Assembly: GCA_041671325.1 (NCBI GenBank)
Contig: JBAZBR010000003.1
Span: 132,506 to 196,505 of the forward strand
Source of the DNA: Patescibacteria group bacterium
Lineage (GTDB): Bacteria; Patescibacteriota; Patescibacteriia; PEXW01
Reading direction: 5' to 3'
DNA: 64,000 nt
Shown here: positions 27,686 through 50,491 of the stretch, piece after piece
How positions within the stretch are numbered: the first letter of the stretch is position 1
How the letters are laid out: each line of letters starts with the position of its first letter
Notes under the pieces: generated by a model
Told to the model about the DNA's origin: nothing
What the model saw: the letters and a program-made list of their open reading frames with translations, nothing else
The model's database searches: none
Made by a program: the position numbers and the translations under genes

Positions 27686-27688
27686 TTC

Positions 27689-33598: not shown

Positions 33599-36500
33599 AT
33601 GCCAAAAGCTAAAAGAAGAAAATCGAAGAATAAAATAACAAGGACTAAAAAGCTTTTTAATGTTTTTGAATTTTTTAAGCATAATTTAAAGCAATCAGCC
33701 GGCATGGCCGTGATTTTTTTGGTTTTTGGAGTTTGGATGCTTGTGCAGGCGCAAAATCCTGAAGCGCCAATCTACCAGGCCAAGCCAGCGACTTGCTCTG
33801 GTTGGCAGGCACCTGACCAAGCCAAGGCAATTAACCTGATGGCTTCGGCTGGCCGAGAGGATTTTTCTACGGAAAATTCAGCATATATTTCCAATGTAAA
33901 TTTTATTGCTAATCAGAATAATAACGATCTCAAAGTCAATTTAACTGATTCGCAAACCATACTCAGCTGTTCTGGCTTTACCTTGCCAGATAACTTGCCA
34001 AAAAATGGCCGTTTAGTTTCTAATAAATTGATAGTTTCTTTGGCTGCTAATGGCTTTACGGAAAGTGAAGATGTTTTAGTTTTACAATACAGCCTGGATG
34101 GTAAGACTTGGCAAAAAATTGATTCGTTTGCGATCACGGATTCCATCAGCAATGCCACGCATGGTGATTTTTGGCAGGTAGAAATTCCAAATTTTAGCCT
34201 CGACCAAGTTTCCAAGCTACAATTCCGGGCGGATTTCCAAACCTTGCCTTCCGACGAAGTTTCCACGGTCTTGTTTGACGGCGTGAATTTGGAATTGGTC
34301 GTGGATAAGCCGTTATCTGGTAAACCTGCTGATTTATCAAAGGACATCATAAAAATAAACAAGACAACTTTTAATAAGTTTGAAGATCCAGTCATTACTT
34401 TAGAAACTGAAAAAAAATCTAGACTTGATTTTTTGGGCTTTGATGGCACCCAGCGAAAAATTGAAGAAGTGAGCATGATTGATCCAAGTGGCCAGGAAAT
34501 TATCCCAGATTTTGAAACTGACAAGATTGTGCAAGGTTCAAGCACGTATGACGCCTATAAAATAAAAACCCAGAACTATAAACGGCCGGGGAAATACCGA
34601 GTGGAATTTACCGTAATTCAGGATAATAACCAAGATGTAATAACCCGGGAGTTTTATTGGGGGGTTTTAGTAGTGAACTCGGATAAGTCTGTTTATCATC
34701 CGGGTGAAACCGCTTCTATCGGCATGGCGGTTTTGGATAGTTTCGGCAGTACGCTCTGTGATGCCAAGGTCGATTTAAGCGTTGCCGCGCCAAACGGTGA
34801 AGTCAAGACATTTTCAACCGACGATAATAGCGTAGAGAGGTCTGCAAAATGCGGAGCCCATACAGTCACCAATTTGCCGGATTACAGCGCCAAATATGAT
34901 ACTTCTGACGAAGGCGAATATACCCTAACCGTAACTTCAACAACAAAAGAAGGCGTGAATACCATTTCGGACAAGTTTTTCGTCAAACCGATTATTCCTT
35001 TTGACGTGATTCGCGATACGCCGACCCGAATTTATCCGGGCGCTGAATACGATACGAATTTAATTGTCACTCCCCAGCAAGATTATACCGGGACTTTTGA
35101 AGATTTTGTGCCGGATAATTTTAAAATCCTGACGGTCAGTAATTCTGGGAAAACCGAGATATTAAATAACGGTAAAATCAAAATTTTATGGAATGTCGAT
35201 TGGCAGGCGGGCAAGCAATATGTTTTAAGCTACCATTTTGATCCGCCAAAGATAAACCCGGCCATTTTTACGGTCGGGCAATTTAAAAGCGGATCCATTA
35301 ACCAGCAAGGTGAAGTTTTTGAAGAATATCGGCCCTGGCAGATTGCTTTTGACGCCACCTGTACTTCCAAAGCCACAGCTGCCTGGAACGTAGGTACGAC
35401 CTGGAATACCTGTGGGGCCAACGGGCCAGTGGCTGGTGATACCGTTATTTTAGCTTCAGGTTTTGTCGTATCCTGCCCAGCGACGATTACTTGTTCAGCC
35501 GCGACAATTACCGTGAACCAGCCATCCACGAGCAATGGTTTAATGCTGTCGGCCTCGACCAGCCGAGTGACCCTGACCGGCGCTTTGACTATTAATGGTT
35601 CGACTGGATCAAACAGCAAAAACGCTTCGATTGTGGTTGGTGCGGGTACGCTCGACGCGGCCAGTGTTTCCATGGTCACCACGGCTGGAACAAACCGGAA
35701 CGCGATATTAAGCGTCAGCACCGGGACCATTAACATTACTGGCAATATTTCTTTTTCTGGCGTTGCAGCGTTTAACAAATTGACTTTTTCCAGCACCGGT
35801 ACGCTCAACATTGGGGGGACAATTGGCACCGGCGGGACTTTAACGCCTAGCACTGGCACGGTGAATTTTAACGGCGGCGCGGCACAAACCCTGGAAAGCA
35901 CGTACACCTATAACAACGTTACCATTACCAATACTTCCGGCAATGTGGCCACCAACGGCACCACCACCATTAACGGCAATTTAACCATGACTTCCGGCTC
36001 GCTGACTGGTACTGACAATATTACCGTAATAAAGAATGTAGTTTGTGGCGTGACCTGCGGGACAATCAGCCGTACCGGCGGCACCTTTACCCAGCAAGTC
36101 GGCGCCGCGCAAAATTTTGGCACCAATGTGGCCGTGGCCACGGATTGGACTTTCAATGATTTGGTGTTTGACCAGGGCGCGGCCGGATCATTCACCATCA
36201 CCACGTCAGCTACCGGTACGGGCGCGAATATTGTCAACGGAAATTTAAGCACCACCCTAACAACGGGAACCACCTTAACAATAGACAACAATACTAATGA
36301 TCGGATTTTTGACGTGGCTGGCAATTTTACGGTTGGCGCGAATACGGTTTGGAGCTCTTCCAGTGGTACCGCTTTAACTTCTTTTACCATCGGCGGGAGT
36401 TTTGCCAATAATGGGACCTTTACCCACAATAGCGGCACCGTTACTTTTGATTCAGCTGGAACCGGCAATACCGTCAATACCGCAACTTTTTATAATATTA

Positions 36501-39500
36501 TTTTTTATGGCGCTGGCGCTTGGTCCCCGGCGACTGGTTCGACCGTAACTATCGACAACATCATGTATATGTCCAACGGCACCCTAAACAATGATGCCGG
36601 AACAGGGAATATCATAGTCAAAGAGCGAGTGGCATGTATAATCTCTTGCGGAACAATCAATTTAACTTCGAGTTCATCGACTTTTACCCAATCAGTTGCT
36701 TCAAGCGTGAGTTTTGGCACTAACCTGGCAAGTGCCATCAATTGGACTTTTTATAATCTGACCTTTGACAATTCTACGGCCTCTTCTTATACCATAACTA
36801 CATACCCTACGGGCACTGGCCAAATAATCGTGGGCGGCTTGCTGAGTTTGACTACTACGGGTGGCGGAGCATTGATAGTGGATAATTCAACCAATGACAG
36901 GATTTTTGATTTAAATGGCGGGCTGACAATCAGTGCCAGTACCACCTTTCAAGCTTCGGATTTGGATAATTTTACCATTGCGGGCAACCTGGCTAATAGC
37001 GGGACTTTTACGGCTGGTTCTTCAGGCACAGTGACTATAGACGGTACGGGCAATACTTTTACTGGCACCTGGACCGGTGGTTCAGCTTTTTATAATTTGA
37101 AATTCAGCAATGCCAGCGGAGCTTGGTCACCTGGAGTGGCGTTGACCGTGGGCGGTGGGCTGACAATTTCTTCTGGTACTTTAACCATGGCTGCGGTGGC
37201 TTTTACCATAACTGGCGCTACTTCAGTCACGGGCACTATAACCATATCCTCGGCCACTGGCACCAAAACTTTTACGGGTAACATTACGATAAACAATGGC
37301 GGTACTTGGAACAATACTTCAGCAAATGTCGCCTTGAGTTTGGCTGGCAGTTTGCAGAATGACGGGGCTTTTAACGCTGGCACGGGTGTTTACACTTTTA
37401 CTGGCGCCGCGCAAACTTTTAGCGGTGCAAATGCCATAACCATACCCAGTCTGACGGTTTCCGGCACATACACCAATAACGGCACTTTGACCGTAACCAC
37501 GGCTTTAGCTGGGGCTGGCACCTTGACCCAAGGCGCTACTGGCTGGCTGGATGTGGATGTGGCAAATGCCAGTTTTACTTTAAGCAACTATGTTTTTTCT
37601 ACCACCGGCAATACGGTAGATTATGGCTATGCCGACGTGCAAACCATACAGGTCACTACTTATTCCAATTTAAGCTTGTCCGGCAGCGGCGTTAAGACTT
37701 TTACTAATGTATCTGTCTATAATGGCAATTTGACCTTGAGCGGCACGGCTTCGGCCACCATGGGTGGATCAACGGCCTGGACTATTGGCGGCAATATTAC
37801 GGTCAATACTGGTGCGGCGCTGACCCAAAACAATGCGGCCAATTTGACGATTAATGGCGGCAGTTTAACAGCTAACAGCACGGGTACTTTTAGTACGAAT
37901 GAGTTTTGTCTAAACTGCGCCATGATCATTGGGGCGACTGGCAGTATCACTGGAGACGGCGCTATTACCCTTAATGCTTTGGCGACGTTAGGCACAGGTA
38001 CAACAACTATTAATGCTACTAATCTGACGGTTAGGGGCAATGTTACGGTGGGTACTGGCACAACTTTGACGATTGGCGTGTCTTTAAGCCTGGTGGGAAA
38101 TTTAGTTAATACCACAACCGGCATAATAAATTATTCCGGGTTACCCACCCTGACCATGTCCACTGGTACATTAGGCGGGGGTGCCGGTACCATCACTCTT
38201 TATAATCTGACTAAAACCGGCGCCGGCATTCTGAACCTTGCTTCGGCAGTAACTTGCGATAATGATGTCGCAGTTGATGCTGGTACTTTATCCGGCTCGG
38301 TTGATTTGACCGTCACTGGCGGAGATTTGGCTGGCGATGGCATCGTGACCATGACTGGCGGCACTGTCACCATAGTTAACGACGGCACTATCGGGACAAA
38401 TACTGCCGTTGATAAAGACTGGACGTTTTATAATCTTTTTTTGGATATCAGCGGCACTTGCACATTGAAAACCACCGAAAGCAACGCTGGGACTGGAGAC
38501 ATTACGGTCACTTCCGCCCTGACCATAGATTCTTGTTCTGGAGGCGAAGGCACTAATTACCATAGATTTTCTCCCAATACCCGCACCTGGATTTTTTCCG
38601 GTACGGGCACTCCTTTACCCGCCTCGTCAATATCCACAACTGGCTATGGCACGTCCATTGTCAGGTTTACCGGCACTAGTTCGGCCGTGACTGTCGGCGC
38701 TAACAGGTTTTATACTTTGGAATTACAGCCGACTTCGTCAAATAGCTACATATTAAGCAATGGAGTTAATTATTATATTTATGGCAACTTGACTATTTCC
38801 AGTAATGCTAGCCTGACGGCCGGTACATCATCAGTTAATATGTATGGCGCAGGTACTACCCTGGATGGCGGCGGTGCCACGCTTTCCACCTTGAATATTG
38901 ATCCTGATTCACCAGACGGCACGGTCGCAATTGCAAATACGGACGTTACAGTCTCTAACACCCTTATCGTCTGGGATGCGGGCGACACATTATCGATTCC
39001 TTCTGGACGAACAGTGAGCGCTACCGGCGCGTTTGCAATTGTTGGCGCTGTCTCTGGCGCCGGCACCCTGCGCTTTACTAACACTTCAGCAGGTCCTGGC
39101 GCAACCGGTACAATCAGCACCATTGTCCGCTATGACGCCAGTGCCGGGAATATCGCTACGGGCACTTTTGACGCCCGGACCTATGGCGGGGATGTGGAAG
39201 TTTATTCGAATGTCGCGGATACGACCCGCTCCATTGCCATGGCTTCAAGTACGCAAACTATTACTGGCAATTTGAAAATTATCACTGGCGCTGCCCAAAA
39301 TTTAGTTCCCACCTTGGATGTTACTGCCAATCCGACCGTAAACATTACCGGCAATGTTTCCTTCACCAAAGGCGGCGCTGGTACGCCCGCAATTACCTCT
39401 GGCACTGGCGCTTGGACCGTAACCGGCAATGTGGATTTTACCGATGGGACTTATACGGCCACTTCGGGAAACACCTTGACCATGAATGGCACTTCAAATT

Positions 39501-42325
39501 CCATCAAAGGCGCCAGTCAAACTTTGTATAATTTTACGGTTGATCCTGCAAGCCCTGGCACGATCAGTCTTGCTACTTCAGATTTGGCCGTAAGTAATAC
39601 GCTTAATATCGCTTCCAGCGATGCCCTGACCCTGGATGCCAGCCGAACCCTGGCCCATACTGGCGCCACCTTGACTTTAACCGGGACAATCAACGGCCCT
39701 GGCCGCCTGACTTACCAATCCGCTTCGGCTTTTCCAACAGGCGGAACTTTAGCCAGCAGCTTAATCCTAAGGTTTAATGCCACGGCCAATGACCAGACTA
39801 TGAGCAACCGGACGGATTACGGCCTTATTGAAATTGATAATAGCGGCGTTACTGACGGTAGGACAGTAACCATGTCAGCTTCAACGCATACTTTATCCGG
39901 CGGCTTGACCGTGCTTTCTTCAGGGGGCGGCTCGGTTGCTTTAGTCGGTGCCACTAATGATCCCACGGTAAATGTTGGCGGTGATCTGACTTTTACTGCT
40001 GGCGGCGGCGTCAAAACCATTTCTACCGGTACGGGCAATTGGAAAGTCAGCGGCAGTGTGAATTTGACCAATGGGACTTTTACGGCCACGGCCAATAACA
40101 CTTTGGAAATGGATGGCGGATCTAAAACCATTACTTCCGCAGCCCAAGGACTCCAGAAATTCAAAGTTTCTGGCGGCAGCGTTGCCAGCGCCGATGCCAT
40201 GTTGGTCAACAAGACTTTTGATGTGACTGCTGGCGGCTTTACCCAGGCTGCAGAAGCTAACCTGACTGTTTATGGTAATTTTTCTTTGACTTTAGGCACC
40301 ACTTTTACCGCCGCAACAGGCGCGGGCAAATTAATTTTAGACGGCAATCCTTCGCCCAATACTTTCACTGACAGCACTTCGCCCCAGCAGGATATGGGCA
40401 ATGTGGAAATTGGCTTGTCGCCTGGCACCACGGATTTAGCTTCTGATTTGACGGCCAAAAGCGTAACTGTCAACGCGGGGGATGTTTTGAATACTAATGG
40501 TTATGATTTAAATATTGGTATTGGCGGGATTACCATCAAAGGCACTATGGACGTCAATGATGACGTGGAAACCGATGGCACGGTAATGGAAACTGATAAT
40601 ATTTTTGACCTGCAAGCCGGCGCAACTTTAGCTAATCCTGCTGGCACAAACGTCGGCTCCACTTTATCTTTTACCATGCCAGTAACTTTAGTAGATATCG
40701 CCAATAATTTGATAACCGCGGGTACAGGCAGTCTTTATGATTTATTAGTTAACGATGGTGGCGGGGCGCGTACTTTGACGGTTAATGTCCAGGACCCATT
40801 AGTGGTACTGAATAATGTTACGATTACCGGCGGAGTTTTGGATACCGTTGATACAGAGAATAACCAAATTAACGTCGGCGGTAATTGGACAAATAGCGAT
40901 TTATTTACTGCCCGTTCTGGCACCGTAGTTTTTGATGATACTAATGTTGACGCTCAAGACCAAACCATTAATCCAGGCGCGTCGTCTTTTTACAAAGTTA
41001 TTTTTGACGGTTCAGGCGGAGTCTGGTCGCCTTTGACTAATACCATGACAGTGACGAACGATTTAATCATGACTAATGGAACGTTCAATACAAGCAATGG
41101 CACGGCAAATGTCACCGTGAATGGTACGGTGCAGTGTGGCGCCACTTGCGGTACGATTACTATGAATACTGCGGGGACTAACACCTTCACCCAATCGGTT
41201 TCGGCTGACAAGAGTTTTGGCACTAATGTGGCAGTGGCCACCAATTGGACTTTTTACAACCTGACTTTTACGGGTACGTCAGGCGTACGGACTATTACAA
41301 CAAACAGCACGGGTACTGGCCAGATAATTGTTGCTAATGATTTGTCTCTGACCAATACTGGAACCTCCTTGGCCTTGGAAAACAATACCAATGACCGGAT
41401 TTTGGATGTGAATGGTTCGGTTTCTATTGGTGCTGGCACCACCCTTTCGGCTTCCAGTTCTGCATCATTCACCGTGGCAAAATCCTGGACAAACAGCGGT
41501 GCTTTAACTGCAAATGGCGGTACGGTTACTTTAGACTCAGCCAATGCGGCCACCATAATCGGTGATACAACCTTTAATAACTTATTAACTTCAGGTATTG
41601 GCGCAGCCAAGACCATCACTTTTACGGAAAATTCTACCCAGATAATTTCTGATACTTGGACAGTAACTGGCGCGGGCGGTCAAAAAGTCACTTTGGCGTC
41701 TTCAAACCCGGGTACCCAATGGATAGTAAACCCAACCGCGGCCGCGCTTAGTTATGTCCAAGTTTCTGATGCCCACAATGACGGAGCGGAAATCTGTGCA
41801 ACCTATTCCACGGCCACGGGCGACAACAACACTAATTTGCTTGTTTCAGCTGGCGCCTCTTGTGTTACCGACCCGACCTTGACTGTAACCTTAAGCGGAA
41901 ATAGCGCAGCCCTTGGTTTATTAGATACTGAACACGTGAACCAAGCCGGAATTTCCAGCGAAGTAACGACCAATGCGGTCGATGGCTATATTTCCACGGT
42001 GAAATATGACCACACCTTAACTTCGGGTACAGACACAATACCTGACACAATTGGCGGAAACATTCCCATTGGTTCGGCAGAATTTGGCGCATCTTCATCG
42101 CAAGCTGGAAATGCCATTGCCCAATGGAGCCCAGCAGCCTGTTCAACAACCACCAGCACGACCAATGCAACCGCGCTATCAACCAGTTTTCAAACATTCG
42201 CTTCAAATGCAGGTCCGGCAACTTCTGAATCCACAACCCTTTGCTTTGCGGCCAGTATTTCCGGCGTAACTCCAGCAGGTTCATATTCCAGCAGTATGAC
42301 CATAATAACCACCGGAAGATTTTGA
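33599..42325 (+). CDS. Giant cell-surface protein (2908 aa): N-terminal signal/anchor, then long Thr/Gly/Ser/Asn-rich beta-helix-like region with an internally repeated ~200-aa module
   Basis: N-terminal MPKAKRRKSKNK + TM segment AVIFLVFGVWMLV. Repeated module ...FGTN(V/L)A(V/S)A(T/I)(D/N)WTF(N/Y)(D/N)L(V/T)F...NDRI(F/L)D(V/L)(A/N)G... appears at least 3 times. Antisense ORFs inside are artefacts. Confidence 0.85.
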   Translation: MPKAKRRKSKNKITRTKKLFNVFEFFKHNLKQSAGMAVIFLVFGVWMLVQAQNPEAPIYQAKPATCSGWQAPDQAKAINLMASAGREDFSTENSAYISNVNFIANQNNNDLKVNLTDSQTILSCSGFTLPDNLPKNGRLVSNKLIVSLAANGFTESEDVLVLQYSLDGKTWQKIDSFAITDSISNATHGDFWQVEIPNFSLDQVSKLQFRADFQTLPSDEVSTVLFDGVNLELVVDKPLSGKPADLSKDIIKINKTTFNKFEDPVITLETEKKSRLDFLGFDGTQRKIEEVSMIDPSGQEIIPDFETDKIVQGSSTYDAYKIKTQNYKRPGKYRVEFTVIQDNNQDVITREFYWGVLVVNSDKSVYHPGETASIGMAVLDSFGSTLCDAKVDLSVAAPNGEVKTFSTDDNSVERSAKCGAHTVTNLPDYSAKYDTSDEGEYTLTVTSTTKEGVNTISDKFFVKPIIPFDVIRDTPTRIYPGAEYDTNLIVTPQQDYTGTFEDFVPDNFKILTVSNSGKTEILNNGKIKILWNVDWQAGKQYVLSYHFDPPKINPAIFTVGQFKSGSINQQGEVFEEYRPWQIAFDATCTSKATAAWNVGTTWNTCGANGPVAGDTVILASGFVVSCPATITCSAATITVNQPSTSNGLMLSASTSRVTLTGALTINGSTGSNSKNASIVVGAGTLDAASVSMVTTAGTNRNAILSVSTGTINITGNISFSGVAAFNKLTFSSTGTLNIGGTIGTGGTLTPSTGTVNFNGGAAQTLESTYTYNNVTITNTSGNVATNGTTTINGNLTMTSGSLTGTDNITVIKNVVCGVTCGTISRTGGTFTQQVGAAQNFGTNVAVATDWTFNDLVFDQGAAGSFTITTSATGTGANIVNGNLSTTLTTGTTLTIDNNTNDRIFDVAGNFTVGANTVWSSSSGTALTSFTIGGSFANNGTFTHNSGTVTFDSAGTGNTVNTATFYNIIFYGAGAWSPATGSTVTIDNIMYMSNGTLNNDAGTGNIIVKERVACIISCGTINLTSSSSTFTQSVASSVSFGTNLASAINWTFYNLTFDNSTASSYTITTYPTGTGQIIVGGLLSLTTTGGGALIVDNSTNDRIFDLNGGLTISASTTFQASDLDNFTIAGNLANSGTFTAGSSGTVTIDGTGNTFTGTWTGGSAFYNLKFSNASGAWSPGVALTVGGGLTISSGTLTMAAVAFTITGATSVTGTITISSATGTKTFTGNITINNGGTWNNTSANVALSLAGSLQNDGAFNAGTGVYTFTGAAQTFSGANAITIPSLTVSGTYTNNGTLTVTTALAGAGTLTQGATGWLDVDVANASFTLSNYVFSTTGNTVDYGYADVQTIQVTTYSNLSLSGSGVKTFTNVSVYNGNLTLSGTASATMGGSTAWTIGGNITVNTGAALTQNNAANLTINGGSLTANSTGTFSTNEFCLNCAMIIGATGSITGDGAITLNALATLGTGTTTINATNLTVRGNVTVGTGTTLTIGVSLSLVGNLVNTTTGIINYSGLPTLTMSTGTLGGGAGTITLYNLTKTGAGILNLASAVTCDNDVAVDAGTLSGSVDLTVTGGDLAGDGIVTMTGGTVTIVNDGTIGTNTAVDKDWTFYNLFLDISGTCTLKTTESNAGTGDITVTSALTIDSCSGGEGTNYHRFSPNTRTWIFSGTGTPLPASSISTTGYGTSIVRFTGTSSAVTVGANRFYTLELQPTSSNSYILSNGVNYYIYGNLTISSNASLTAGTSSVNMYGAGTTLDGGGATLSTLNIDPDSPDGTVAIANTDVTVSNTLIVWDAGDTLSIPSGRTVSATGAFAIVGAVSGAGTLRFTNTSAGPGATGTISTIVRYDASAGNIATGTFDARTYGGDVEVYSNVADTTRSIAMASSTQTITGNLKIITGAAQNLVPTLDVTANPTVNITGNVSFTKGGAGTPAITSGTGAWTVTGNVDFTDGTYTATSGNTLTMNGTSNSIKGASQTLYNFTVDPASPGTISLATSDLAVSNTLNIASSDALTLDASRTLAHTGATLTLTGTINGPGRLTYQSASAFPTGGTLASSLILRFNATANDQTMSNRTDYGLIEIDNSGVTDGRTVTMSASTHTLSGGLTVLSSGGGSVALVGATNDPTVNVGGDLTFTAGGGVKTISTGTGNWKVSGSVNLTNGTFTATANNTLEMDGGSKTITSAAQGLQKFKVSGGSVASADAMLVNKTFDVTAGGFTQAAEANLTVYGNFSLTLGTTFTAATGAGKLILDGNPSPNTFTDSTSPQQDMGNVEIGLSPGTTDLASDLTAKSVTVNAGDVLNTNGYDLNIGIGGITIKGTMDVNDDVETDGTVMETDNIFDLQAGATLANPAGTNVGSTLSFTMPVTLVDIANNLITAGTGSLYDLLVNDGGGARTLTVNVQDPLVVLNNVTITGGVLDTVDTENNQINVGGNWTNSDLFTARSGTVVFDDTNVDAQDQTINPGASSFYKVIFDGSGGVWSPLTNTMTVTNDLIMTNGTFNTSNGTANVTVNGTVQCGATCGTITMNTAGTNTFTQSVSADKSFGTNVAVATNWTFYNLTFTGTSGVRTITTNSTGTGQIIVANDLSLTNTGTSLALENNTNDRILDVNGSVSIGAGTTLSASSSASFTVAKSWTNSGALTANGGTVTLDSANAATIIGDTTFNNLLTSGIGAAKTITFTENSTQIISDTWTVTGAGGQKVTLASSNPGTQWIVNPTAAALSYVQVSDAHNDGAEICATYSTATGDNNTNLLVSAGASCVTDPTLTVTLSGNSAALGLLDTEHVNQAGISSEVTTNAVDGYISTVKYDHTLTSGTDTIPDTIGGNIPIGSAEFGASSSQAGNAIAQWSPAACSTTTSTTNATALSTSFQTFASNAGPATSESTTLCFAASISGVTPAGSYSSSMTIITTGRF

Positions 42326-42644
42326 TGTTAAAATTTTTATGGCAAAAAACCTTTTTTATCAATTGGAAGGAGAAGCGTATTTAAAACTTTTTAAAATTTT
42401 AATTCTTATAAGTTAAAATTCCTGTGACACTGGCGCTGGAACTTATAATGCGCCAACGCTTTCAACCGCGCCAAAGATTTTTACCTCGGCTTCAGACAAT
42501 TATGTCTGTACAAAACAAGATTGCCACGCTCACCCGCGATAGTGGGTTCGCTCGCAATGACCCTAAAATTGACGTGAGTTTAGGAATGTGCTATAATTAT
42601 CTTAGAAAATAAAAATAAATATTAACTTTTAACCCAAATTTCTT

Positions 42645-43733
42645 ATGAAACAAAGATTACTTTTATCAAAACCAAGCGTTATCTTGGCCATGCTTGCCAT
42701 GGTTTTTGCGTTTTCTATACCGGCTAAAACCACCAAAGCCGCGGCTTTGACTGGCCTAAAAGATACCGCCTCCAGGCTTGAGCAGGGCATACAGGGAACC
42801 CATTCATTCGCTTTTACGACTACTGATGAGCTTTCAGCCACAGAAACAATCAAGATTCTTTTCGATTCACCAGCGGATTCCTTTACCCTCGATGGGACGA
42901 TTGTCGCTACTGATTTTTCAGCCTTAACTGGTATTGCCGTGGTAGACAACATTGCCGCCTGTAGCGGTACAGCTTCAGAAGTCTACCCGACAGTAATTAC
43001 GGCCAATGATGACGAAAGCTACACTCTAACCGTCTGTACTGGTGATACGGTTGCTGGCGGGGCAATAGCCTTTACTATCGATAATAATGAAATAACCAAC
43101 CCTGCTGCAGCTGGAGTCTATGTGATTGATGTTTCAACTACGGCAACCACCCCGGATAGCGGCTCGCTGGCACTGGCGATTATCGCTGACGACACGGTCA
43201 GTGTAACCGCTACGGTTGATCCTTCAGTTACCTTTTCTATCTCTGATGTGGCAATTGGTTTTGGCGTACTAGACGCAACTAATGATTGCTGGGCTTTAGG
43301 CGTGCCGCCTGCTGCCTGCGATACAGTTTATCCTCCTACTGCGGCCCACACCTTTTCACTTGGCACCAACGCTACTGACGGTGTTGCCCTGACCTATTCT
43401 GGTGCGACGCTTACTAATCTTGCTGCTGATACTATTACCGTGGCGACTGTTGCTGGTGATACCTCGGATCCGGTTGGCACGCCAAACACTGAACAATTTG
43501 CCATTGGTTTTGATGATAACGCCGCGACCTATACTTTCGCTGATACCGCCGCTTACGACCAAAGTCTTGGAAATTATAAATTTGTCGCTGGTGCAACCAC
43601 TCCGATTCTCTCAATCGCTGGTCCAGTGGCGGCTACGAGCATAGATGCCCACTATTTGGCAAACATTTCGGCGGCCACCGAATCCGGCGCCTACTCAACG
43701 TCAATCACCTACATCGCTACCGGAACTTTTTAA
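42645..43733 (+). CDS. Secreted surface protein (362 aa). Its C-terminal ~100 aa resemble the giant protein's C-terminus, ending ...SGAYSTSITYIATGTF versus ...AGSYSSSMTIITTGRF
   Basis: Signal peptide MKQRLLLSKPSVILAMLAMVFAFSIPAKTTKAAA. Thr/Ala/Val-rich. The shared C-terminal motif is seen directly. Confidence 0.7.
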   Translation: MKQRLLLSKPSVILAMLAMVFAFSIPAKTTKAAALTGLKDTASRLEQGIQGTHSFAFTTTDELSATETIKILFDSPADSFTLDGTIVATDFSALTGIAVVDNIAACSGTASEVYPTVITANDDESYTLTVCTGDTVAGGAIAFTIDNNEITNPAAAGVYVIDVSTTATTPDSGSLALAIIADDTVSVTATVDPSVTFSISDVAIGFGVLDATNDCWALGVPPAACDTVYPPTAAHTFSLGTNATDGVALTYSGATLTNLAADTITVATVAGDTSDPVGTPNTEQFAIGFDDNAATYTFADTAAYDQSLGNYKFVAGATTPILSIAGPVAATSIDAHYLANISAATESGAYSTSITYIATGTF

Positions 43734-43806: not shown

Positions 43807-44847
43807 TTGAAATACATTTTCTCAACCAACACTAAAACGAAAATACTTAAATTTAGCTTGCTTGCCGCTTTAGTTTTCATGCTCTTTCCGTTTACTGGTA
43901 AGGCTTTAACAGTCAGTCCCCCACAGGTTGAAATGACTTTGGTGCCTGGGCAGAAGGCAGAGATGGTAATCAAGCTTTATAACGAGGAAGAGACTGACCT
44001 GACTCTTTATACCGATTCCGCGCTTTTTACTTCTAACAATGTTGATGGTTTACCGGTTTATGATTTTAATGCCAGTAAAGAAGATATTAGTACTTGGTTT
44101 GAAGTGGAAAAAGGCCCAATCACCCTAAAGTCAAAAGAAAGAAAATCAATTCCAGTCACCATTAATACCCCAACTAATGCCGGACCAGGCGGTCATTATG
44201 CGGTTTTAGCTTTTTCAAAAAATCCGCCGAAGAGTGATTCTGGCACTACTCAAATCAGCATTGCTTCTCAAATTGGGGTTTTAATCTTGGCACGGATCGA
44301 AGGAGAAATTCAAGAAGCCGGGCAAATTTCCAGTTTTATTTCAGACGCTAAGCAATATAGGTATTTACCTGTAAATTTCCGGACTATCTTCAATAATACT
44401 GGCAATGTCCACTTGCGGCCTACTGGTAAAATAATCATTAATAATACTTTTGGCAAGAAAACCGCAGAACTTAATTTTAATGAAGCCAATTCAGCTGTCC
44501 TGCCGGATTCTTCCCGGACTTATGATTCGGTTTGGCAAAAAGCCCAAAATGTTTCGGAAAACGGGAATATCTGGTCAAAATTCTGGCAAGCCTATAAAAA
44601 CGAGAAAAATAATTTTGGTCTTGGCAAATATACGGCTAATCTGCAGATCCAGGCTGGGACGAATAAGCCATTTACGACTGCAGCCAGCGCCACTTTTTGG
44701 GTCTTGCCATGGCACATGTTGTTGGTTTGGCTGATTGTCTTAGTGATTGTTGTCATTTTATTGATTGTCTTGATAAAACGCTATAACCGCTGGGTTATCC
44801 GCAAAGCCCAAGAGCGTGGCAAAAATCCCCCAGCAGATAAAAAGTAA
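43807..44847 (+). CDS. Cell-surface protein with signal peptide and C-terminal TM anchor + basic tail; tentatively DUF916/DUF3324-like (CscA-like of WxL loci)
   Basis: N-terminus LTVSPPQVEMTLVPGQKAEMVIKLYN..., middle GGHYAVLAF, C-terminal WVLPWHMLLVWLIVLVIVVILLIVLIKRYNRW. Family call from memory. Confidence 0.5.
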   Translation: MKYIFSTNTKTKILKFSLLAALVFMLFPFTGKALTVSPPQVEMTLVPGQKAEMVIKLYNEEETDLTLYTDSALFTSNNVDGLPVYDFNASKEDISTWFEVEKGPITLKSKERKSIPVTINTPTNAGPGGHYAVLAFSKNPPKSDSGTTQISIASQIGVLILARIEGEIQEAGQISSFISDAKQYRYLPVNFRTIFNNTGNVHLRPTGKIIINNTFGKKTAELNFNEANSAVLPDSSRTYDSVWQKAQNVSENGNIWSKFWQAYKNEKNNFGLGKYTANLQIQAGTNKPFTTAASATFWVLPWHMLLVWLIVLVIVVILLIVLIKRYNRWVIRKAQERGKNPPADKK

Positions 44848-44860
44848 ATTAATCGAATAG

Positions 44861-45727
44861 ATGAATAATTTTAAAGCCCGCTGGAAATATTTGCTGGCCC
44901 TAATTTTTTTTGTAATAGCCAGCACTTTTAGCTGGCCAGGCCTGGCCAGGGCTTTGGACGTGAGCGTTACTGCCACGGTACCAAGCGCCACTCCGCCAGA
45001 AACTCCCATAACCTCTGTTGTTTTAAAAGGCATTGCCTACCCATCTTCCACGGTTACTATTTTAAAAGACGGGGCTTTGGCCGTGGCAGTACCAGCCGAC
45101 CCAACCGCCAGGTTTGATGTAACCCTTGGCAGCTTGACTGCCGGCACTTACACTTTTGGAGTTTATGGCAAGGACCGGGATGGCAGGCAGGGGCCAACTT
45201 TGAATTTTACCGTAACTTTAACCACTGGCACGACCGTAACCATAACCGGGATTTTTTTGGGCCCAACCATTGAGGCTGATAAAACCATGGCTCGCTTGGG
45301 CGAGACCATAACCTTGCTTGGCGTAACTAGTCCAAGCAGTACAGTTAGTGTGTATGTCAGTTCAGAGACTGATCATTCTTTTAACGTGACTGCCAGCAGT
45401 TCAGGCGCCTGGTCAAAGCAATTCCAAGCCAGCGACTTAAGGGTCGGCAACCATGAAGCTAAATCTAAAGCTACAGATCCGGATGGCTCGGTTTCGGAAT
45501 TCAGCAACACCGTCAGTTTCCAAGTTGCCACTACAGAACTTTGTGCGGACAAGGTTAAGGCAGACTTAAACTGCGATGGCGAAGTGGATATCGTGGATTT
45601 CAGTATTTTGCTTTACTATTGGAATCAGCGTAACCCCAAGAATGCCAGGGCAGATATTAATACTGACGGCATTGTGAATATCATTGACTTCAGTATCATG
45701 CTCTATTATTGGACGGGGCCAAAGTAG
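44861..45727 (+). CDS. Secreted protein with Ig-like domains and a C-terminal dockerin (type I-like, duplicated Ca-binding repeats)
   Basis: DLNCDGEVDIVDFSILLYYW ... DINTDGIVNIIDFSIMLYYW: two 22-residue D.N.DG.V...D repeats at the extreme C-terminus. N-terminal signal peptide. Confidence 0.7.
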   Translation: MNNFKARWKYLLALIFFVIASTFSWPGLARALDVSVTATVPSATPPETPITSVVLKGIAYPSSTVTILKDGALAVAVPADPTARFDVTLGSLTAGTYTFGVYGKDRDGRQGPTLNFTVTLTTGTTVTITGIFLGPTIEADKTMARLGETITLLGVTSPSSTVSVYVSSETDHSFNVTASSSGAWSKQFQASDLRVGNHEAKSKATDPDGSVSEFSNTVSFQVATTELCADKVKADLNCDGEVDIVDFSILLYYWNQRNPKNARADINTDGIVNIIDFSIMLYYWTGPK

Positions 45728-45731
45728 CCAA

Positions 45732-45848: not shown

Positions 45849-45855
45849 ATAAAAT

Positions 45856-46995
45856 ATGCAAAATAAATTATTTAAAATCATCGGGTTTTGTACACTAGTC
45901 TTGGGAATTTTCTTTTTCCAAAAAACAGTTCTGGCGGCCGAGCTTTACCTTTCCCCGGAAAATGATTTGATTAATCAAGGCCAGACTGTGGTGGTGGAGC
46001 TTAGGTTGGATAGCCGGAAAGAAATTATCAATGCTGTCCAAGGCCGGATGACTTATGATCCGCAAATTTTAGAATTTGTGGAAGTATCCAAAGCCGGGAC
46101 ATTTTTGAGCTTATGGCCAGAAGAACCCAAAGCTGATACGGCCGCAGGCGTGATTACTTTTGCCGGCGGCGCGCCTAATGGCAGTTATGTGATTAATGGC
46201 CGGGTTTTGGCCGTGGTTTTTAAAGGCAAAAACCTGGGGAGTTCTAAAGTCAGTATTGATAATGGCACTAGCGGCGTGTATTTGAATGATGGTTTAGGGA
46301 CCAAGGCCGAATTAAATGTCAAAAGCGCCACTATCACAGTCCAAATTCCGACTTCAACAATTAATTTAACTTCTCCAACCCATCCAGATGAAAACACTTG
46401 GTATAAAGCCAAAGACGTAAAGTTCACTTGGAGCGTGACGCAAGACGCTTTTTACGCTTATGTCTTTGGGGTCGATCCCGCGGCTTTACCCGACGAAAGA
46501 ATTGCCACTCACCTGGGTGAAATTTCTTATTCCAACGTGGATGATGGTATCCATTATTTTATCCTGAAGGAAAAATTGCCAAATGATAAATGGGGTCCAT
46601 CCATCCGGATGCGCGTGCAAATTGATTCAACTTTGCCTGAATCAATTATTTACCAGCTGACCCAAGACGTAGTGCCAGGCAAATTAGTCTTGGTATTTAG
46701 TGCCAAAGATCGGGTTTCCCAAATAGTCAAATACCAAATTATCGAAGGTAACCAAATTACGGATAATGCCATTAGCCCCTATACTTTAAAAAACCAAAAA
46801 CAAAGCCAAGTCATTACCATAAAGGCATTTGATTCAGCTGGCAATCTCCAAGAGGCGGTTATTCCTGGCGTGAAAACCGCTTCTACCGCTACCCAATATT
46901 TGTGGCCAATAGCCATTGGTTTTTCGCTCGTTATCCTGGTAATAATCCTTGTTGTTTATTGGCCAAAAAAACCCAAGCGGAATTTAGTTAAATAG
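45856..46995 (+). CDS. Membrane-anchored protein with N-terminal cohesin-like domain (379 aa)
   Basis: Signal peptide, then LYLSPENDLINQGQTVVVELRLDS...INAVQGRMTYDPQILEFVEVSKAGT...GVITFAGG...GRVLAVVFKGKNLGSSKVSI (cohesin-like beta-sandwich signature). C-terminal TM WPIAIGFSLVILVIILVVYW + KKPKR. Confidence 0.6.
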   Translation: MQNKLFKIIGFCTLVLGIFFFQKTVLAAELYLSPENDLINQGQTVVVELRLDSRKEIINAVQGRMTYDPQILEFVEVSKAGTFLSLWPEEPKADTAAGVITFAGGAPNGSYVINGRVLAVVFKGKNLGSSKVSIDNGTSGVYLNDGLGTKAELNVKSATITVQIPTSTINLTSPTHPDENTWYKAKDVKFTWSVTQDAFYAYVFGVDPAALPDERIATHLGEISYSNVDDGIHYFILKEKLPNDKWGPSIRMRVQIDSTLPESIIYQLTQDVVPGKLVLVFSAKDRVSQIVKYQIIEGNQITDNAISPYTLKNQKQSQVITIKAFDSAGNLQEAVIPGVKTASTATQYLWPIAIGFSLVILVIILVVYWPKKPKRNLVK

Positions 46996-47040
46996 ATTTT
47001 TTATCCTCTAAATAGAATAGAAGCAGAGATTGTAAAACTA

Positions 47041-47150: not shown

Positions 47151-47237
47151 GGAAGAAGATATAAAATAACCCCCAACCTTTAAGGGGGAATTTTAATCCA
47201 ATTATTAATAAATTAATTTTTTAAGTATACTGATTAC

Positions 47238-48746
47238 ATGGCAAAGGGTCGTAGGTTAGTATCCATAAGCTTATTTATTAGCCTGTTATTAGGAGGCGTT
47301 GTTAGTTTTTATAATCATGACGTAAAAGCGGCCGATGGGGCTAGCCTGCTTTTCAGTCCGGGTAATGCCAATTTCACGGTTGGCAGCACTTTTAATATTT
47401 CCGTGGTAGTTAACACCGGCAAAAAAGCCATCAATGCCGTCAAGGCTGACATCAAATTCCCGCCCACCAAATTGCAGGTGGTAAATCCCAGCACTGGCAC
47501 CTCCTTCATTTCCATTTGGGTTGACCAGCCGGCTTATTCCAACACCGCCGGCACAGTTTCTTTCCAGGGCGGCTTGCCAAATCCCGGCATAGTCACGGAT
47601 GCCGGGGTAGTCAGCACCATAACTTTCCGCGCCACTTCCCCAGGTACGGCTAAAATAACTTTTGCGGATACTTCCAAGGTTTTAGCCAATGACGGCCAAG
47701 GCACAAATTTATTGACTTCCCGGGGAGACGCGAATTTGACTTTGAATTTGGCTGCTCCTGAAGGTCCGATTATTTCTTCGCCTTCTCATCCAGACCAAAA
47801 TGCCTGGTACCAAAATCGGACGGTAAATTTTGAATGGGAAGAAATCCCGAATGCCGTGGGCTATAGTTATGTCTTTGACCAAAATTCCAAAACCACGCCA
47901 CCGGAAAAACAGGATGCCACTTCCCAAAGGACTACCACAGTCACGACTGACAAAGATGGCCGTTGGTATTTTCATGTCCGGGCCAAGGTGGAAAGTTGGG
48001 GCGGCACCAGCCACTATGCGGTTTTAATTGATGCCACTCCGCCTGCCTCATTCACCCCGACTTTGGATCCACCAAACCCCCAGCCAGGACAGCGGGGTGA
48101 ACTGAAATTTTTCACTACTGATGCCATGTCTGGTATAGAGCATTATGAAATGCAAATCTTGCATCTGGATAATCCCGACCAAGGCACGCCTTTTTTCACT
48201 GAACAGTCCAGCCCAGTCCGGTTGCCGGATTTGCCATTGGGTAAATATGAAGTCGCAGTCAGGGCTTTTGACCAGGCAGGCAATTCCATTGATGGCAAAT
48301 TAAATTTTAGCGTCTCCACTCCTGACACAGGCCCGAAAATTGGTAAAAAGCCTTTATTGCAAAATACCTTTTTTACGAATATCGCCCTGATTGGTGCGGG
48401 TTTATTGGTTTTAATATTGCTAATCTGGTTGATTGCTCGCTGGCGCCGAAAACCTAAGGATGTTATTGAGGATATCCAGAGACTGGAGCAAGAAACCCTG
48501 CAAAAAGAATCAGAATTAGCCCGAACTATTACCGCGGCCAGGGCTTTGGAATCCGCCATCCAGCAGCAGGTTGAACATGACCAAGGCCAAGCACCTAAAC
48601 AGACCAACCAAGAGCCACCTGCAGGAAATCAGCAAGTCGCGTATAATGAGCAAGCAGGGGTACCCCAGCCTCCCCAAGAACCAGAAGCTACTAATTTTAT
48701 CAACCCCCAGCATCCCGAGGATTTAAACCAAAACCAAAAGACATGA
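47238..48746 (+). CDS. Membrane-anchored protein with N-terminal cohesin-like domain, a conserved middle domain (SHPDQNAWY...WYFHVRAK) and a C-terminal TM + cytoplasmic tail (502 aa)
   Basis: LLFSPGNANFTVGSTFNISVVVNTGKKAINAVKADIKFPPTKLQVVNPSTGT... is paralogous to the 45856 and 48743 genes. Confidence 0.65.
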   Translation: MAKGRRLVSISLFISLLLGGVVSFYNHDVKAADGASLLFSPGNANFTVGSTFNISVVVNTGKKAINAVKADIKFPPTKLQVVNPSTGTSFISIWVDQPAYSNTAGTVSFQGGLPNPGIVTDAGVVSTITFRATSPGTAKITFADTSKVLANDGQGTNLLTSRGDANLTLNLAAPEGPIISSPSHPDQNAWYQNRTVNFEWEEIPNAVGYSYVFDQNSKTTPPEKQDATSQRTTTVTTDKDGRWYFHVRAKVESWGGTSHYAVLIDATPPASFTPTLDPPNPQPGQRGELKFFTTDAMSGIEHYEMQILHLDNPDQGTPFFTEQSSPVRLPDLPLGKYEVAVRAFDQAGNSIDGKLNFSVSTPDTGPKIGKKPLLQNTFFTNIALIGAGLLVLILLIWLIARWRRKPKDVIEDIQRLEQETLQKESELARTITAARALESAIQQQVEHDQGQAPKQTNQEPPAGNQQVAYNEQAGVPQPPQEPEATNFINPQHPEDLNQNQKT

Positions 48747-50491
48747 AAAAAATATTTTTCATATTTATAATTATTGCCGGTTTAGGGGTTTGGTTTTGGC
48801 CAAGCCAATCAGAAGCCGCCAGTCTTTTATTAAGTCCAACAAGTGCCTCCTTGCAAGTCGGCCAGTCTAAAATTATTTCTATTATTGTGGCCAGTTCAGA
48901 CCAGGCCATGAATGCCAGCCAGGCAGTGCTGAGTTTTCCGACCAGCAAGCTGCAAGTCACAGGTTTATCCAAAGCTGGATTATTTTCTTACTGGACCCAA
49001 GAACCAAGTTACTCCAATTCCAGCGGCACTATAACTTTTGGCGGCGGCATGCCAACCCCAGGCTATAAAGGTTCTGGTCGAAGTATTTTTAGCATTACTT
49101 TCAAAGCTAAGGCAACTGGCACAGCAAAAATTACTTATACTTCTGGGTCAGTTTTTGCCAATGATGGCGAGGGGACAAATATCATAAAAAGTTATGGCAG
49201 CTCAACTTTAACTATTTCCGCAGCCACCCCAGTTAATACCGCGCCAGAACCAGAACCCACGCCCCAGCCAAACCAACCCAGCATAGTGGCACCCAGCGTG
49301 ACTTCCACAACCCATCCAAATTCCGATTCTTGGTATAACAAGCCGGACATTTCCTTGACTTGGACCCGGCCGAATAATAACTTTGGCGTCAGTTATATAT
49401 TGGACCAAGTTGCAACTACCACCCCAGACGAAGCCTTAGAAACCAATACTGGCAGTGAAGATTTCAAGCAAACTGCAGATGGAGTTTGGTATTTCCATAT
49501 CCGCGCCAAATACTCCACTGGCTGGTCTAACACCACGCATTTCAAAATCCAGATTGATACCCGGCCACCAGAAAATTTTTCACCCCAAATTTCCAGGGAA
49601 GGCGGCACGGGTAACCCGAACGTGATCTTGATTTTTTCTACCACTGATTCCTTAAGCGGCGTTTCTGGCTATGCCATTGCTTATGATGCGAATAATTTTG
49701 TTACAGTCACCAGTCCGTATACCTTAAAAAACCAAAAAGCCGGTTTGCACCAATACACGGTCCGCGCCACAGACCGGGCTGGCAATAGCCGGGATGCCAT
49801 TGGCCAGTTTAACGTGGAAGGCAGTCCGGCGCCCAGGATTACCCAAGTGCCCAAAACCGTGACCTTATTCGGGGAAATTCCAGTGGAAGGTTTGACGGTT
49901 AAGGGTGATGAAGTAGTTCTGTTGGTTGATGGCAAGGAAGTCGGCAGATTTATAAGTGACAATTACCAAATTGATTCCAAAAACGGCGTAGCCGTACCCG
50001 AAGGCTTAGTTTTGTGGCGCTATGTTATCCAGCCTTTTTTAATCCCGGGTGACCACCAGTTGACTGCTTATGCCATAAACCAATTTAAGATTGAAAGCCC
50101 GGCTAGCGTGCCCGTACTTTTCAAAACCCTTGGTTCAGTCACCCAGATTTTCGGGTTTTACGTTTCCACCTGGGGCTTGATAATTTCCCTCTTGCTGGTC
50201 ATCTTCATCTTAATCCTGCTCTTGCTCATCCTTTATGAGCGTTACCGGCATTGGCGCCGTCAGCAGGCTTTTGATTTGGATAAAGCCGAAGAGGAAATTA
50301 ACGAGGAAATTGAAAAGCTACAAACTGTTTTGGAAAAGGATATCGCAGGAGCCATTCGCTCATCAATTAAAGAAAAATCAATTCAATCTGCTACCCATGA
50401 CCAGATAAAAAAGGATCTAATCCAAACCCGGAGCCGGATTGACGGTTTGTTGGAGAAGGAAATCCAGCGCAAAAAGCGGAAAAGGAAATAA
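48743..50491 (+). CDS. Membrane-anchored cohesin-like domain protein, third paralog (582 aa), with extra Ig-like domain and coiled-coil basic C-terminal tail
   Basis: LLLSPTSASLQVGQSKIISIIVASSDQAMNASQAVLSFPTSKLQV...; THPNSDSWYNK...WYFHIRAK. Start overlaps the previous stop (ATGA). Confidence 0.65.
   Translation: MKKIFFIFIIIAGLGVWFWPSQSEAASLLLSPTSASLQVGQSKIISIIVASSDQAMNASQAVLSFPTSKLQVTGLSKAGLFSYWTQEPSYSNSSGTITFGGGMPTPGYKGSGRSIFSITFKAKATGTAKITYTSGSVFANDGEGTNIIKSYGSSTLTISAATPVNTAPEPEPTPQPNQPSIVAPSVTSTTHPNSDSWYNKPDISLTWTRPNNNFGVSYILDQVATTTPDEALETNTGSEDFKQTADGVWYFHIRAKYSTGWSNTTHFKIQIDTRPPENFSPQISREGGTGNPNVILIFSTTDSLSGVSGYAIAYDANNFVTVTSPYTLKNQKAGLHQYTVRATDRAGNSRDAIGQFNVEGSPAPRITQVPKTVTLFGEIPVEGLTVKGDEVVLLVDGKEVGRFISDNYQIDSKNGVAVPEGLVLWRYVIQPFLIPGDHQLTAYAINQFKIESPASVPVLFKTLGSVTQIFGFYVSTWGLIISLLLVIFILILLLLILYERYRHWRRQQAFDLDKAEEEINEEIEKLQTVLEKDIAGAIRSSIKEKSIQSATHDQIKKDLIQTRSRIDGLLEKEIQRKKRKRK

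Follow-up and report, generated by a model that had tools for sequence, protein, structure and literature searches.

CPR (candidate phyla radiation) bacteria live for the most part as epibionts that have not been cultured, and a central open question is by what means they capture host cells and keep their grip on them. The locus studied here, at positions 33599-50491 of a 64,000-nucleotide stretch (the window) of contig JBAZBR010000003.1 from a Patescibacteria group bacterium, gives this question a concrete form: what would such a cell build from a giant repeat protein, a dockerin protein and three membrane-bound cohesin proteins encoded side by side? The initial annotation, made from the sequence alone, proposed a cellulosome-like, non-cellulolytic scaffold that might mediate attachment. 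Our analysis supported the surface and attachment role in outline and placed the locus in a different frame, since the seven genes probably constitute an operon for a Pam-type, usher-less donor-strand-exchange pilus of CPR bacteria in a previously undescribed configuration.

All the open reading frames (ORFs) of the co-linear cluster described in the initial annotation were recovered, as seven consecutive + strand ORFs of 2908, 362, 346, 288, 379, 502 and 582 amino acids; the first is referred to here as the giant and the others by their length (p362 to p582). The gaps between them were, in order, 320, 73, 13, 128 and 242 bp, and the start of p582 overlapped the stop of p502 by 4 bp. A hydrophobic signal-type segment was found at the start of all seven products, and a C-terminal membrane-spanning segment in p346, p379, p502 and p582.

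Pilin, giant protein and proposed chaperone

Pam pili are a discovery of 2026, made in a single cultured species of Saccharimonadia. In filaments of Ca. Mycosynbacter amalyticus, cryo-electron microscopy (cryo-EM) showed pilins PamA and PamB, built of a nine-strand beta-sandwich N-domain, a linker acting as donor strand and an open, truncated Ig-like acceptor C-domain that accepts the linker of the next subunit, and the donated linker and its binding site were reported as the most conserved parts (bioRxiv 10.64898/2026.03.03.709456). The operon further encodes PamC and PamD, PapD-like chaperones tethered by a C-terminal membrane helix, PamT, a tip consisting of a C-domain only, and PamR, a terminator that combines two FnIII domains and a membrane helix with an additional strand at its N-terminus; the pili were reported mainly in Saccharimonadia and Microgenomatia (bioRxiv 10.64898/2026.03.03.709456).

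The proposed shaft pilin of the window, p362 (42645-43733, + strand), matched over residues 226-362 the NCBIfam model NF058581 (CPR_Pam_pilin_C, 'Pam pilus system pilin subunit') with 57.9 bits, the cut-off being 55. Its layout comprised a signal peptide, an N-domain (residues ~33-181), a linker or donor strand and a C-domain (residues ~194-362), with cysteine pairs at 106/131 and 215/225. The linker has the sequence DDTVSVTATVDPS, and DDTVSVTATVDP (residues 182-193; 43188-43223, + strand) is taken as the donor strand. Across 41 orthologous pilins the most conserved 12-residue window was VTATVDPSVTFS (residues 187-198), that is, the linker together with the first C-domain strand, followed by the C-terminal strand as the second most conserved stretch. 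The plan of N-domain, linker and C-domain with a most conserved linker was thus present in p362 at the sequence level; such conservation is expected for a polymerising subunit and would be unnecessary for a protein displayed singly. A total of 454 relatives were found at E ≤ 1e-3 among 1.84e9 cluster representatives, mostly of 340-390 residues, and a minority were long proteins matching through their extreme C-terminus only. No solved Pam pilin chains were found in the PDB by sequence search.

The C-terminal motif that the initial annotation had seen in both p362 and the giant was borne out by the alignment of p362 residues 323-362 with giant residues 2869-2908 (45% identity, E 2e-4), and both C-termini matched the same curated NCBIfam model over ~150 residues. 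Judged by these profile matches, the shared module is the Pam pilin C-domain, an identity not recognised in the initial annotation. A WxL domain was also suspected, from the motifs TNAxxGY and AGxYxxxxTY, and was not supported: the WxL profile search proposed in the initial annotation (PF13731) gave no match for p362 or the giant at E ≤ 1 and none for 23 diverse C-domains at E ≤ 10, and a profile of these 23 sequences run against the PDB did not find the long-WxL chain of entry 9i25.

The giant (33599-42325, + strand), read from its ORF and translation as a putative acceptor-only tip adhesin, has the Thr/Gly/Asn-rich composition previously noted for it (T 17%, G 11%, S 10%, A 9%, N 8%). A long basic N-terminus and a hydrophobic signal segment (residues 33-51) are succeeded by an N-terminal region of ~560 residues, a T/G/S/N-rich repeat region of ~2100 residues and a C-terminal Pam pilin C-domain. 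The module of ~200 residues described as occurring three times was indeed found at residues 740-960, 933-1153 and 2420-2660 (46-53% identity, E 1e-33 to 1e-45): modules 1 and 2 (35816-37057, + strand) were 46% identical (BLASTP, E 9e-37), and module 3 (40856-41578, + strand) was 48-53% identical to both (E 1e-33 to 1e-45). A partial fourth copy lay at residues 1547-1643, and a second repeated pair at residues 1780-2000 and 1994-2190 (37% identity). These repeats were detected by BLASTP of segments against the whole protein; self-BLAST of the whole protein showed no off-diagonal matches. Pfam gave only a weak MG2 match at residues 358-450, and the repeat region had no Pfam or PDB sequence relative, so that the beta-helix-like fold ascribed to it in the initial annotation is a guess.

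The last 153 residues of the giant (2756-2908; 41864-42322, + strand), the proposed donor-strand acceptor, aligned with model positions 2-148 of 148 of NF058581 (E 2.1e-12, 47.3 bits, against the curated cut-off of 55), and only 15.7 bits were obtained with the PamT model NF058579, whose cut-off is 240. All 30 orthologous giants in related loci end in a Pam C-domain. No linker-like donor strand was found in the giants, the best score with a position-specific scoring matrix (PSSM) of the linker being ≤6.5 bits vs. 27-37 bits in pilins. The giants thus have a C-domain and no linker, and can accept a strand but cannot donate one, which is the property of a tip subunit. In one related locus, from a 'Pacebacteria' metagenome-assembled genome (MAG; L079:1-8005), the giant gene encodes at least 4,077 residues, and mobile-type genes (PDDEXK_3, 23S_rRNA_IVP) lie between it and a 210-residue ORF and the chaperone gene.

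The third product, p346 (43807-44847, + strand), the proposed membrane-anchored chaperone, displayed a signal peptide, two Ig-like beta-sandwich domains, a C-terminal transmembrane (TM) helix (residues ~303-328) and a short basic tail. It had been described as a DUF916/DUF3324-like anchor protein, and this description held in part: the match to PF06030 (DUF916/WxLIP_PGBD) was close to threshold (26.2 bits, gathering score 27.3, E 9e-6) and the TM helix was present, but DUF3324 (PF11797) was not detected by Pfam. In its predicted model (predicted local distance difference test, pLDDT, 88), the best structural match was the solved WxLIP of E. faecium (9i1y), with a further match to the complex of WxLIP and a long WxL protein (9i25), and WxLIP and the chaperones of chaperone-usher systems were matched over both domains. 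A profile of the 30-sequence chaperone-family alignment also matched EfmWxLIP1 at E 0.006. No match was obtained with the Pam-named NCBIfam models. As in Pam operons, a membrane-anchored PapD-like chaperone is encoded together with the pilin. The two PDB entries, of WxLIP alone (9i1y) and bound to the long WxL protein (9i25), were released in 2026-01.

Another role considered for p346, that of a PamR-like anchor, was judged less likely, since the donor motif was absent (the best linker-PSSM score among chaperone-family ORFs was 7.7 bits) and alignments with chaperones covered both domains of the protein, those with RbmA a single one. A kinship between the Pam and WxL systems, both of them strand-insertion systems of monoderm bacteria that do without an usher, is possible. 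If a chaperone closest to WxLIP does serve a Pam-type pilus, this would suggest that the Pam pili of CPR and the Firmicutes WxL clusters descend from a single ancient system of chaperone and strand exchange, usher-less and belonging to monoderm bacteria.

Dockerin protein, cohesin paralogues and related loci

The fourth product, p288 (44861-45727, + strand), is proposed as a donor-only terminator or adaptor. It consists of a signal peptide, an N-terminal donor-like strand, a Pro-rich spacer, Big_6 and Big_13 Ig domains and a type I dockerin, with no TM segment. The dockerin (residues 235-288; 45563-45724, + strand) scored 34.9 bits with PF00404 (gathering score 22.9) and contained two calcium-binding loops, DLNCDGEVDIVD and DINTDGIVNIID, with DFSI(L/M)LYYW coming after each of them; ligand positions 1, 3, 5, 9 and 12 were conserved in 36-40 of 40 orthologues. 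The canonical duplicated dockerin of the initial annotation was therefore present with both loops intact, and neither the profile scores nor the loops, the two points named there as able to overturn the domain calls, did so. Dockerin-type loops occurred in the 64-kb window in p288 only. Homologues of p288 filled >1000 clusters, and the named ones all came from Patescibacteria or unclassified MAGs.

A donor-like strand, ALDVSVTATVPS (residues 31-42; 44951-44986, + strand), was found in p288 directly after an ARA cleavage motif, with a linker-PSSM score of 16.2 bits; cleavage after …GLARA|L gives a mature N-terminus reading LDVSVTATVPS. In 40 p288 orthologues the median best score was 12.6 bits, at residues 27-38 in most, whereas medians were -9.4 bits in 904 other ORFs (Mann-Whitney p 1e-24, p-values being indicative only because orthologues are non-independent samples), -4.2 in cohesin proteins and -3.9 in chaperones. 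Scores of ≥10 bits were reached by 26 of the 40 orthologues vs. 3 of the 904 other ORFs.

The origin of this strand was apparent in nine long dockerin proteins of 437-460 residues, three from genome loci (L035:10991-12325, L041:10974-12287 and L062:2212-3537) and six from database matches (P0069, P0070, P0079, P0087, P0119 and P0142). All nine carry the pilin N-domain and linker N-terminally, with Ig-Ig-dockerin in the place of the acceptor C-domain. They matched the hidden Markov model (HMM) of the pilin N-domain at E 5e-46 to 5e-22 over model positions ~10-191 of 193 and showed 37-50% identity to the pilin of their own locus; P0069 was 67% identical to p288. Pairwise BLAST of P0069 against p362 was not significant, and the relationship was shown by the N-domain HMM. 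These chimeric orthologues indicated that the dockerin protein family is derived from the pilin, p288 keeping the donor strand alone, and from their domain composition the long forms look like evolutionary intermediates between the pilin and the short p288 form. This origin was likewise not seen in the initial annotation. A subunit able to donate a strand and unable to accept one, as p288 would be, can only be incorporated last. The locus encodes no single protein of the PamR type, with an N-terminal donor strand, two FnIII domains and its own TM segment; these features were split between p288 (strand and two Ig domains, ending in a dockerin, no TM segment) and the cohesin proteins (FnIII and TM).

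The last three genes encode the proposed membrane sockets p379 (45856-46995), p502 (47238-48746) and p582 (48743-50491), all on the + strand. Scores with the cohesin profile PF00963 (gathering score 24.1) were 35.3 bits for p502, 24.3 for p582 and 21.6 for p379, so that two of the three cohesin-like domains proposed earlier passed the Pfam threshold. The AlphaFold2 model of p502 (pLDDT 82) has the cohesin fold, superposing on type I cohesins with template modelling scores (TM-scores) of 0.71-0.78 and root-mean-square deviations of 2.3-3.5 Å, and its Foldseek matches were 2w1n (cohesin plus FnIII) and the type I cohesins 1g1k, 2vn5 and 6kgf. In p502 the cohesin (residues ~35-170) is followed by two FnIII/Ig-like domains (~178-360), a TM segment (~376-403) and a long cytoplasmic tail, helical and disordered. 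The layout of p379 is a cohesin-like domain, FnIII/Ig-like domains, a TM segment and a very short tail; that of p582 is a cohesin, an FnIII/Ig-like part, an extra extracellular domain with Big_13 and OmpL47-type matches, a TM segment (~469-502) and a charged coiled tail. Identity among the paralogues was 30-36% (p379 30-31% to p502 and p582 over ~340 residues; p582 36% to p502). The conserved motif that the initial annotation had listed for its three tandem membrane-anchored paralogues, SHPD...WY...WYFHVRAK, was invariant or nearly so in a 28-sequence alignment and lies in the FnIII/Ig-like region of p502, and the TM segments were likewise confirmed. Named homologues of p502, and also of p346, all belonged to Patescibacteria-type or unclassified MAGs.

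Conservation of the whole locus, which had been suggested as a check, was analysed in 78 species-representative genomes retrieved with a 12-sequence subset of the 30-sequence chaperone alignment. A Pam C-domain gene stood beside the chaperone gene in 77 of 79 loci, the window counted. In ~40 of the 78 species-level Patescibacteria genomes the one-strand order giant, pilin, chaperone, Ig-dockerin, cohesin-FnIII-TM recurred, with 1-2 pilin, 1-2 chaperone and 2-3 cohesin-FnIII-TM copies per locus. The dockerin gene was directly followed by cohesin-TM genes in every related locus with downstream sequence, the p379-type gene being the first in 39 of 39, and the same order was reached independently from one distant cohesin homologue and one distant dockerin homologue. 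No other genes were conserved across the related loci. The predicted pairing of the p288 dockerin with the neighbouring cohesins draws its support from this strict adjacency in ~40 genomes and from the single dockerin of the window. All 78 genome loci were of CPR type, although some records carry other titles: CPR-type operon records L002, L004, L010, L014, L028, L051 and others are entitled Gammaproteobacteria ('uncultured … bacterium'), 'Pirellulales bacterium' or 'Candidatus Methylomirabilis sp.', which means either that such titles cannot be relied on or that CPR contigs have contaminated the bins. In the deposited Patescibacteria MAGs, the pilin and the giant are named 'hypothetical protein' and the others 'dockerin type I repeat-containing protein' and 'cohesin domain-containing protein'.

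More distant sister loci (L044-L078; e.g., L044:10975-14529 and L049:11047-14565; L078; from Uhrbacteria-type and other Patescibacteria) had neither dockerin nor cohesin. Directly after the chaperone they encode a protein of 1,100-1,200 residues in which a signal peptide and a pilin N-domain are followed by the linker, a Gly/Pro spacer, FnIII repeats and, at the C-terminus, a TM helix; it has no C-domain, and its linker-PSSM score had a median of 14.5 bits at residue ~185-200. Judging from this domain order, it looks like a one-piece, self-anchoring donor-only terminator. The sister loci also encode two C-domain proteins (~305 and ~340 residues), and the ~305-residue one, which has no linker, may be a PamT-like tip. 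In the clade of the window two kinds of protein seem to share the job of the long sister protein, a donor subunit with a dockerin and membrane proteins with cohesins.

Proposed assembly, rival explanations and surroundings

In the proposed pilus, all seven products would be exported by Sec. The chaperone p346, with its two PapD/WxLIP-like Ig domains and C-terminal membrane helix, would cap incomplete C-domains on the outward side of the membrane until polymerisation. The giant would be incorporated first and nucleate the fibre, ending at the distal tip as an adhesin, a position that follows from an acceptor C-domain without donor strand. Head-to-tail polymerisation of p362, through its N-domain, donor linker and acceptor C-domain, would form the shaft, until the donor strand of p288 fills the groove of the last p362; growth would end there because p288 brings no acceptor domain. 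Its dockerin would then bind, with Ca2+, the cohesin of p379, p502 or p582 and fasten the fibre to the cell. The giant has no dockerin and would most likely be held through the pilus shaft, which would itself dock to the cohesins by its base only. Of the non-covalent contacts known between proteins, those of some cohesin-dockerin pairs count among the most force-resistant, and such resistance would suit a load-bearing anchor.

A more specific version of this proposal, on which we consider the evidence evenly poised, is that a large CPR clade anchors a donor-strand-exchange pilus by a non-covalent cohesin-dockerin plug and socket, in which the last subunit is a pilin with Ig-Ig-dockerin replacing the acceptor domain, three conserved cohesin-FnIII-TM proteins serve as sockets, possibly signalling via their cytoplasmic tails, and an adhesin of ~3,000 residues caps the fibre. 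If true, pili would here be anchored in a new manner, and the cohesin-dockerin pair would gain a biological role that is new as well.

Several points weigh against the pilus as proposed. What the analysis shows is the homology of the individual parts, their architecture, the synteny and the descent of the dockerin protein from a pilin; filament formation, subunit order and the dockerin-cohesin contact are what we infer from genes and models, and the N-domain/linker/open C-domain fold of p362 rests on HMM matches and conservation. The C-domain of the giant fell short of the curated Pam cut-off and p379 fell just under the cohesin gathering score. The significance of the PSSM comparison is overstated, and what looks like a free donor strand at the N-terminus of p288 could instead belong to the protein's own Ig domain, as its first strand. 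ATP-synthase genes, looked for because pam operons are reported to neighbour them, were absent in the window and in the related loci. Nor does the proposal account for the need for three different cohesin proteins with different cytoplasmic tails.

The main alternative is a non-filamentous complex of the WxL type, in which the giant and p362 would each stand alone on the wall, held by strand insertion from p346 into their C-domains in the manner proposed for WxL proteins and WxLIP of Firmicutes, and dockerin and cohesins would form a separate scaffold. WxLIP, also as bound in 9i25, was the best structural match of p346, and WxLIP_PGBD came near the Pfam threshold; the gene content parallels WxL clusters, with a small C-domain-only protein, a large C-domain-ended protein and a WxLIP (PMC10599100); and for this lineage a pilus is a prediction from genes. 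We nevertheless regard this explanation as unlikely. p362 belongs to a family seen as filaments by cryo-EM, with the linker as its most conserved segment; the dockerin protein carries the same strand, or the whole pilin N-domain and strand; and p362, the giant and the 23-sequence C-domain profile gave no PF13731 or PDB long-WxL match.

The scaffold of the initial annotation, in which membrane cohesin scaffoldins recruit p288 and possibly other dockerins independently of any pilus, the co-location reflecting co-regulation, takes strength from the fact that dockerin and cohesin are genuine and adjacent, and the surplus of three cohesins over a single dockerin in the locus could mean that further dockerin partners are encoded in other parts of the genome. 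It is quite improbable in view of the strict synteny with pilin and chaperone genes in ~40 genomes, in which no other gene is conserved, and of a dockerin protein that is pilin-derived and bears a donor strand. The sister loci, moreover, put a single donor-only membrane anchor where the dockerin and cohesin genes stand, and no enzyme, CBM (carbohydrate-binding module) or second dockerin was found in the window. With one dockerin, on an Ig protein without enzyme, and neither glycoside hydrolase nor CBM, a cellulosome-like scaffold is not the best frame for the locus. A polysaccharide-degrading cellulosome or other enzyme complex has the presence of cohesin and dockerin modules in its favour and nothing else, and is effectively refuted by Pfam and NCBIfam searches that found no catalytic or carbohydrate-binding module in the seven proteins, the single dockerin being on an Ig-domain protein. 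A Pam-type pilus thus remained the preferred explanation. Regarding other routes of pilus assembly and attachment, an LPXTG-like motif was absent from the C-termini of all seven proteins, and no sortase was conserved across the related loci; likewise, no usher-like gene was present in the locus or conserved in the related loci.

Two sigma-70-like promoter matches were located on the + strand, one upstream of the giant gene (33482-33510; 10/12 consensus plus TG extension, a consensus match only) and the other, the best of the 18-kb region (42569-42597; TTGACG-17-TATAAT, 11/12 with TG extension), in the 320-bp gap after the giant gene, 48 bp upstream of p362. The latter, as a consensus match only, suggests that the shaft subunit may be transcribed separately and strongly. 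The flanking genes are of the housekeeping kind (Ddl, ABC transporter, DksA, LspA, ComM and a two-component system), and Rfam and tRNA scans detected three tRNAs only, all distant from the locus. In the subclade of the window (window coordinates 53506-53967), DksA, signal peptidase II and ComM come after the cohesin genes, in the window itself after the ABC transporter. In a two-chaperone subclade a type I signal peptidase gene comes after the cohesin genes, directly in L003 (16022-16672) and, in L081 (13417-14025), after a glycosyltransferase gene; a T4SS_pilin/Big_5 protein is encoded a few genes further on.

Elsewhere in the window, a block at 23500-30700 had a GC content of 0.48-0.53 vs. 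0.37-0.45 on either side and is a possible foreign island; its ORFs (23530-24159, 24820-25749, 25849-26793, 26909-27685, 28601-29437 and 30267-30677) had no Pfam match and no signal peptides. An acidic, apparently cytoplasmic ORF of 1108 residues without Pfam match (18371-21697) adjoins a TrmB-type regulator on the opposite strand.

Relation to known systems

The claim that such a locus had not been characterised in CPR bacteria is outdated for the pilin and chaperone core, described in the 2026 preprint, and holds for the dockerin-cohesin part. That preprint mentions neither dockerin, cohesin, adhesin nor WxL systems (bioRxiv 10.64898/2026.03.03.709456). The literature searched held no account that ties dockerin or cohesin to pili or to exchange of donor strands, and none of such an arrangement in CPR bacteria, and a full-text search linking dockerin, donor strand and pilin returned one general 2013 review only. 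If read correctly, the locus extends the Pam system to a different, large CPR radiation, offers in its giant adhesin a candidate host-binding tip, and proposes a testable answer to how a pilus with neither usher nor sortase is terminated and anchored. It would also give the widespread non-cellulosomal cohesin and dockerin modules of CPR a specific proposed function. The parts concerned (dockerin, three cohesins, linker peptide and C-domain) are small and soluble, so that binding and structure work can be done without cultivation.

Among the systems compared, the chaperone-usher pili (Pap, Fim, CFA/I, Csu) resemble the proposed pilus in donor-strand complementation and exchange, in a two-domain PapD-like chaperone, in a tip adhesin of two parts, the C-terminal one being a pilin domain (FimH, PapG), and in a dedicated terminator (PapH). 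They differ in that here there is no outer membrane and no usher, and the cytoplasmic membrane is where the chaperone is anchored; p288 apart, the proposed donor strand lies in the linker between two domains and does not extend the N-terminus; and the terminator is proposed to be fixed by a dockerin-cohesin contact, whereas theirs is retained in the usher. Cellulosome anchoring by type I/II cohesin-dockerin pairs (SdbA, OlpB, ScaE) has in common with the locus a duplicated calcium-binding type I dockerin with near-symmetrical halves, the jelly-roll fold of the cohesin, and a cell-bound cohesin holding an extracellular assembly. In contrast, the proposed cargo here is a pilus subunit, where cellulosomes carry enzymes or scaffoldins; the host belongs to the CPR; the cohesin proteins are TM-anchored and not attached by S-layer homology (SLH) domains or sortase; and CBMs and hydrolases are lacking.

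The WxL clusters of Firmicutes (Csc of L. plantarum and loci A-C of E. faecium; PMC10599100, PMC1534035) similarly encode a membrane-anchored two-Ig protein of ~340 residues and a small and a very large secreted protein with a common C-terminal domain, in a monoderm-type host, and strand insertion from the anchor protein into the C-domain is predicted in both cases. However, the C-domain here is not detectably WxL and DUF3324 was undetected, and the small protein here has an N-domain and a conserved donor linker, which implies polymerisation; WxL clusters are without dockerin or cohesin genes, and WxL proteins are thought to bind peptidoglycan and not to form fibres. The sister loci have the same chaperone family, the same pilin linker motif and C-domain, a small C-domain-only protein and a donor-only subunit encoded directly after the chaperone; they differ in their self-anchoring donor-only protein of 1,100-1,200 residues and in having no dockerin, cohesin or giant gene within 10 kb.

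With the Pam pili themselves the locus shares the pilin C-domain family by curated HMM, the plan of N-domain, conserved linker and C-domain, paired cysteines, a two-Ig chaperone with C-terminal TM helix, the absence of an usher, the restriction to CPR, and a scheme, here read from genes, in which the tip only accepts a strand and the terminator only donates one. Unlike the Pam pili reported so far, the relatives here are titled Kerfeld-, Uhr-, Kuenen-, Falkow- and Parcubacteria, the tip is a repeat protein of 2,908 residues vs. the single-domain PamT, one shaft pilin gene stands against PamA, PamB and PamE, and the features of PamR are divided between the dockerin donor subunit and the cohesin-FnIII-TM proteins; there is also no ATP-synthase neighbourhood, and p346 has no Pam-named NCBIfam match. 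The core of pilin and membrane chaperone has been known since 2026; three features are new with respect to the Pam description: the giant as proposed tip, a proposed terminator that bears a dockerin and has cohesin proteins for its sockets, and the structural closeness of the chaperone to WxLIP.

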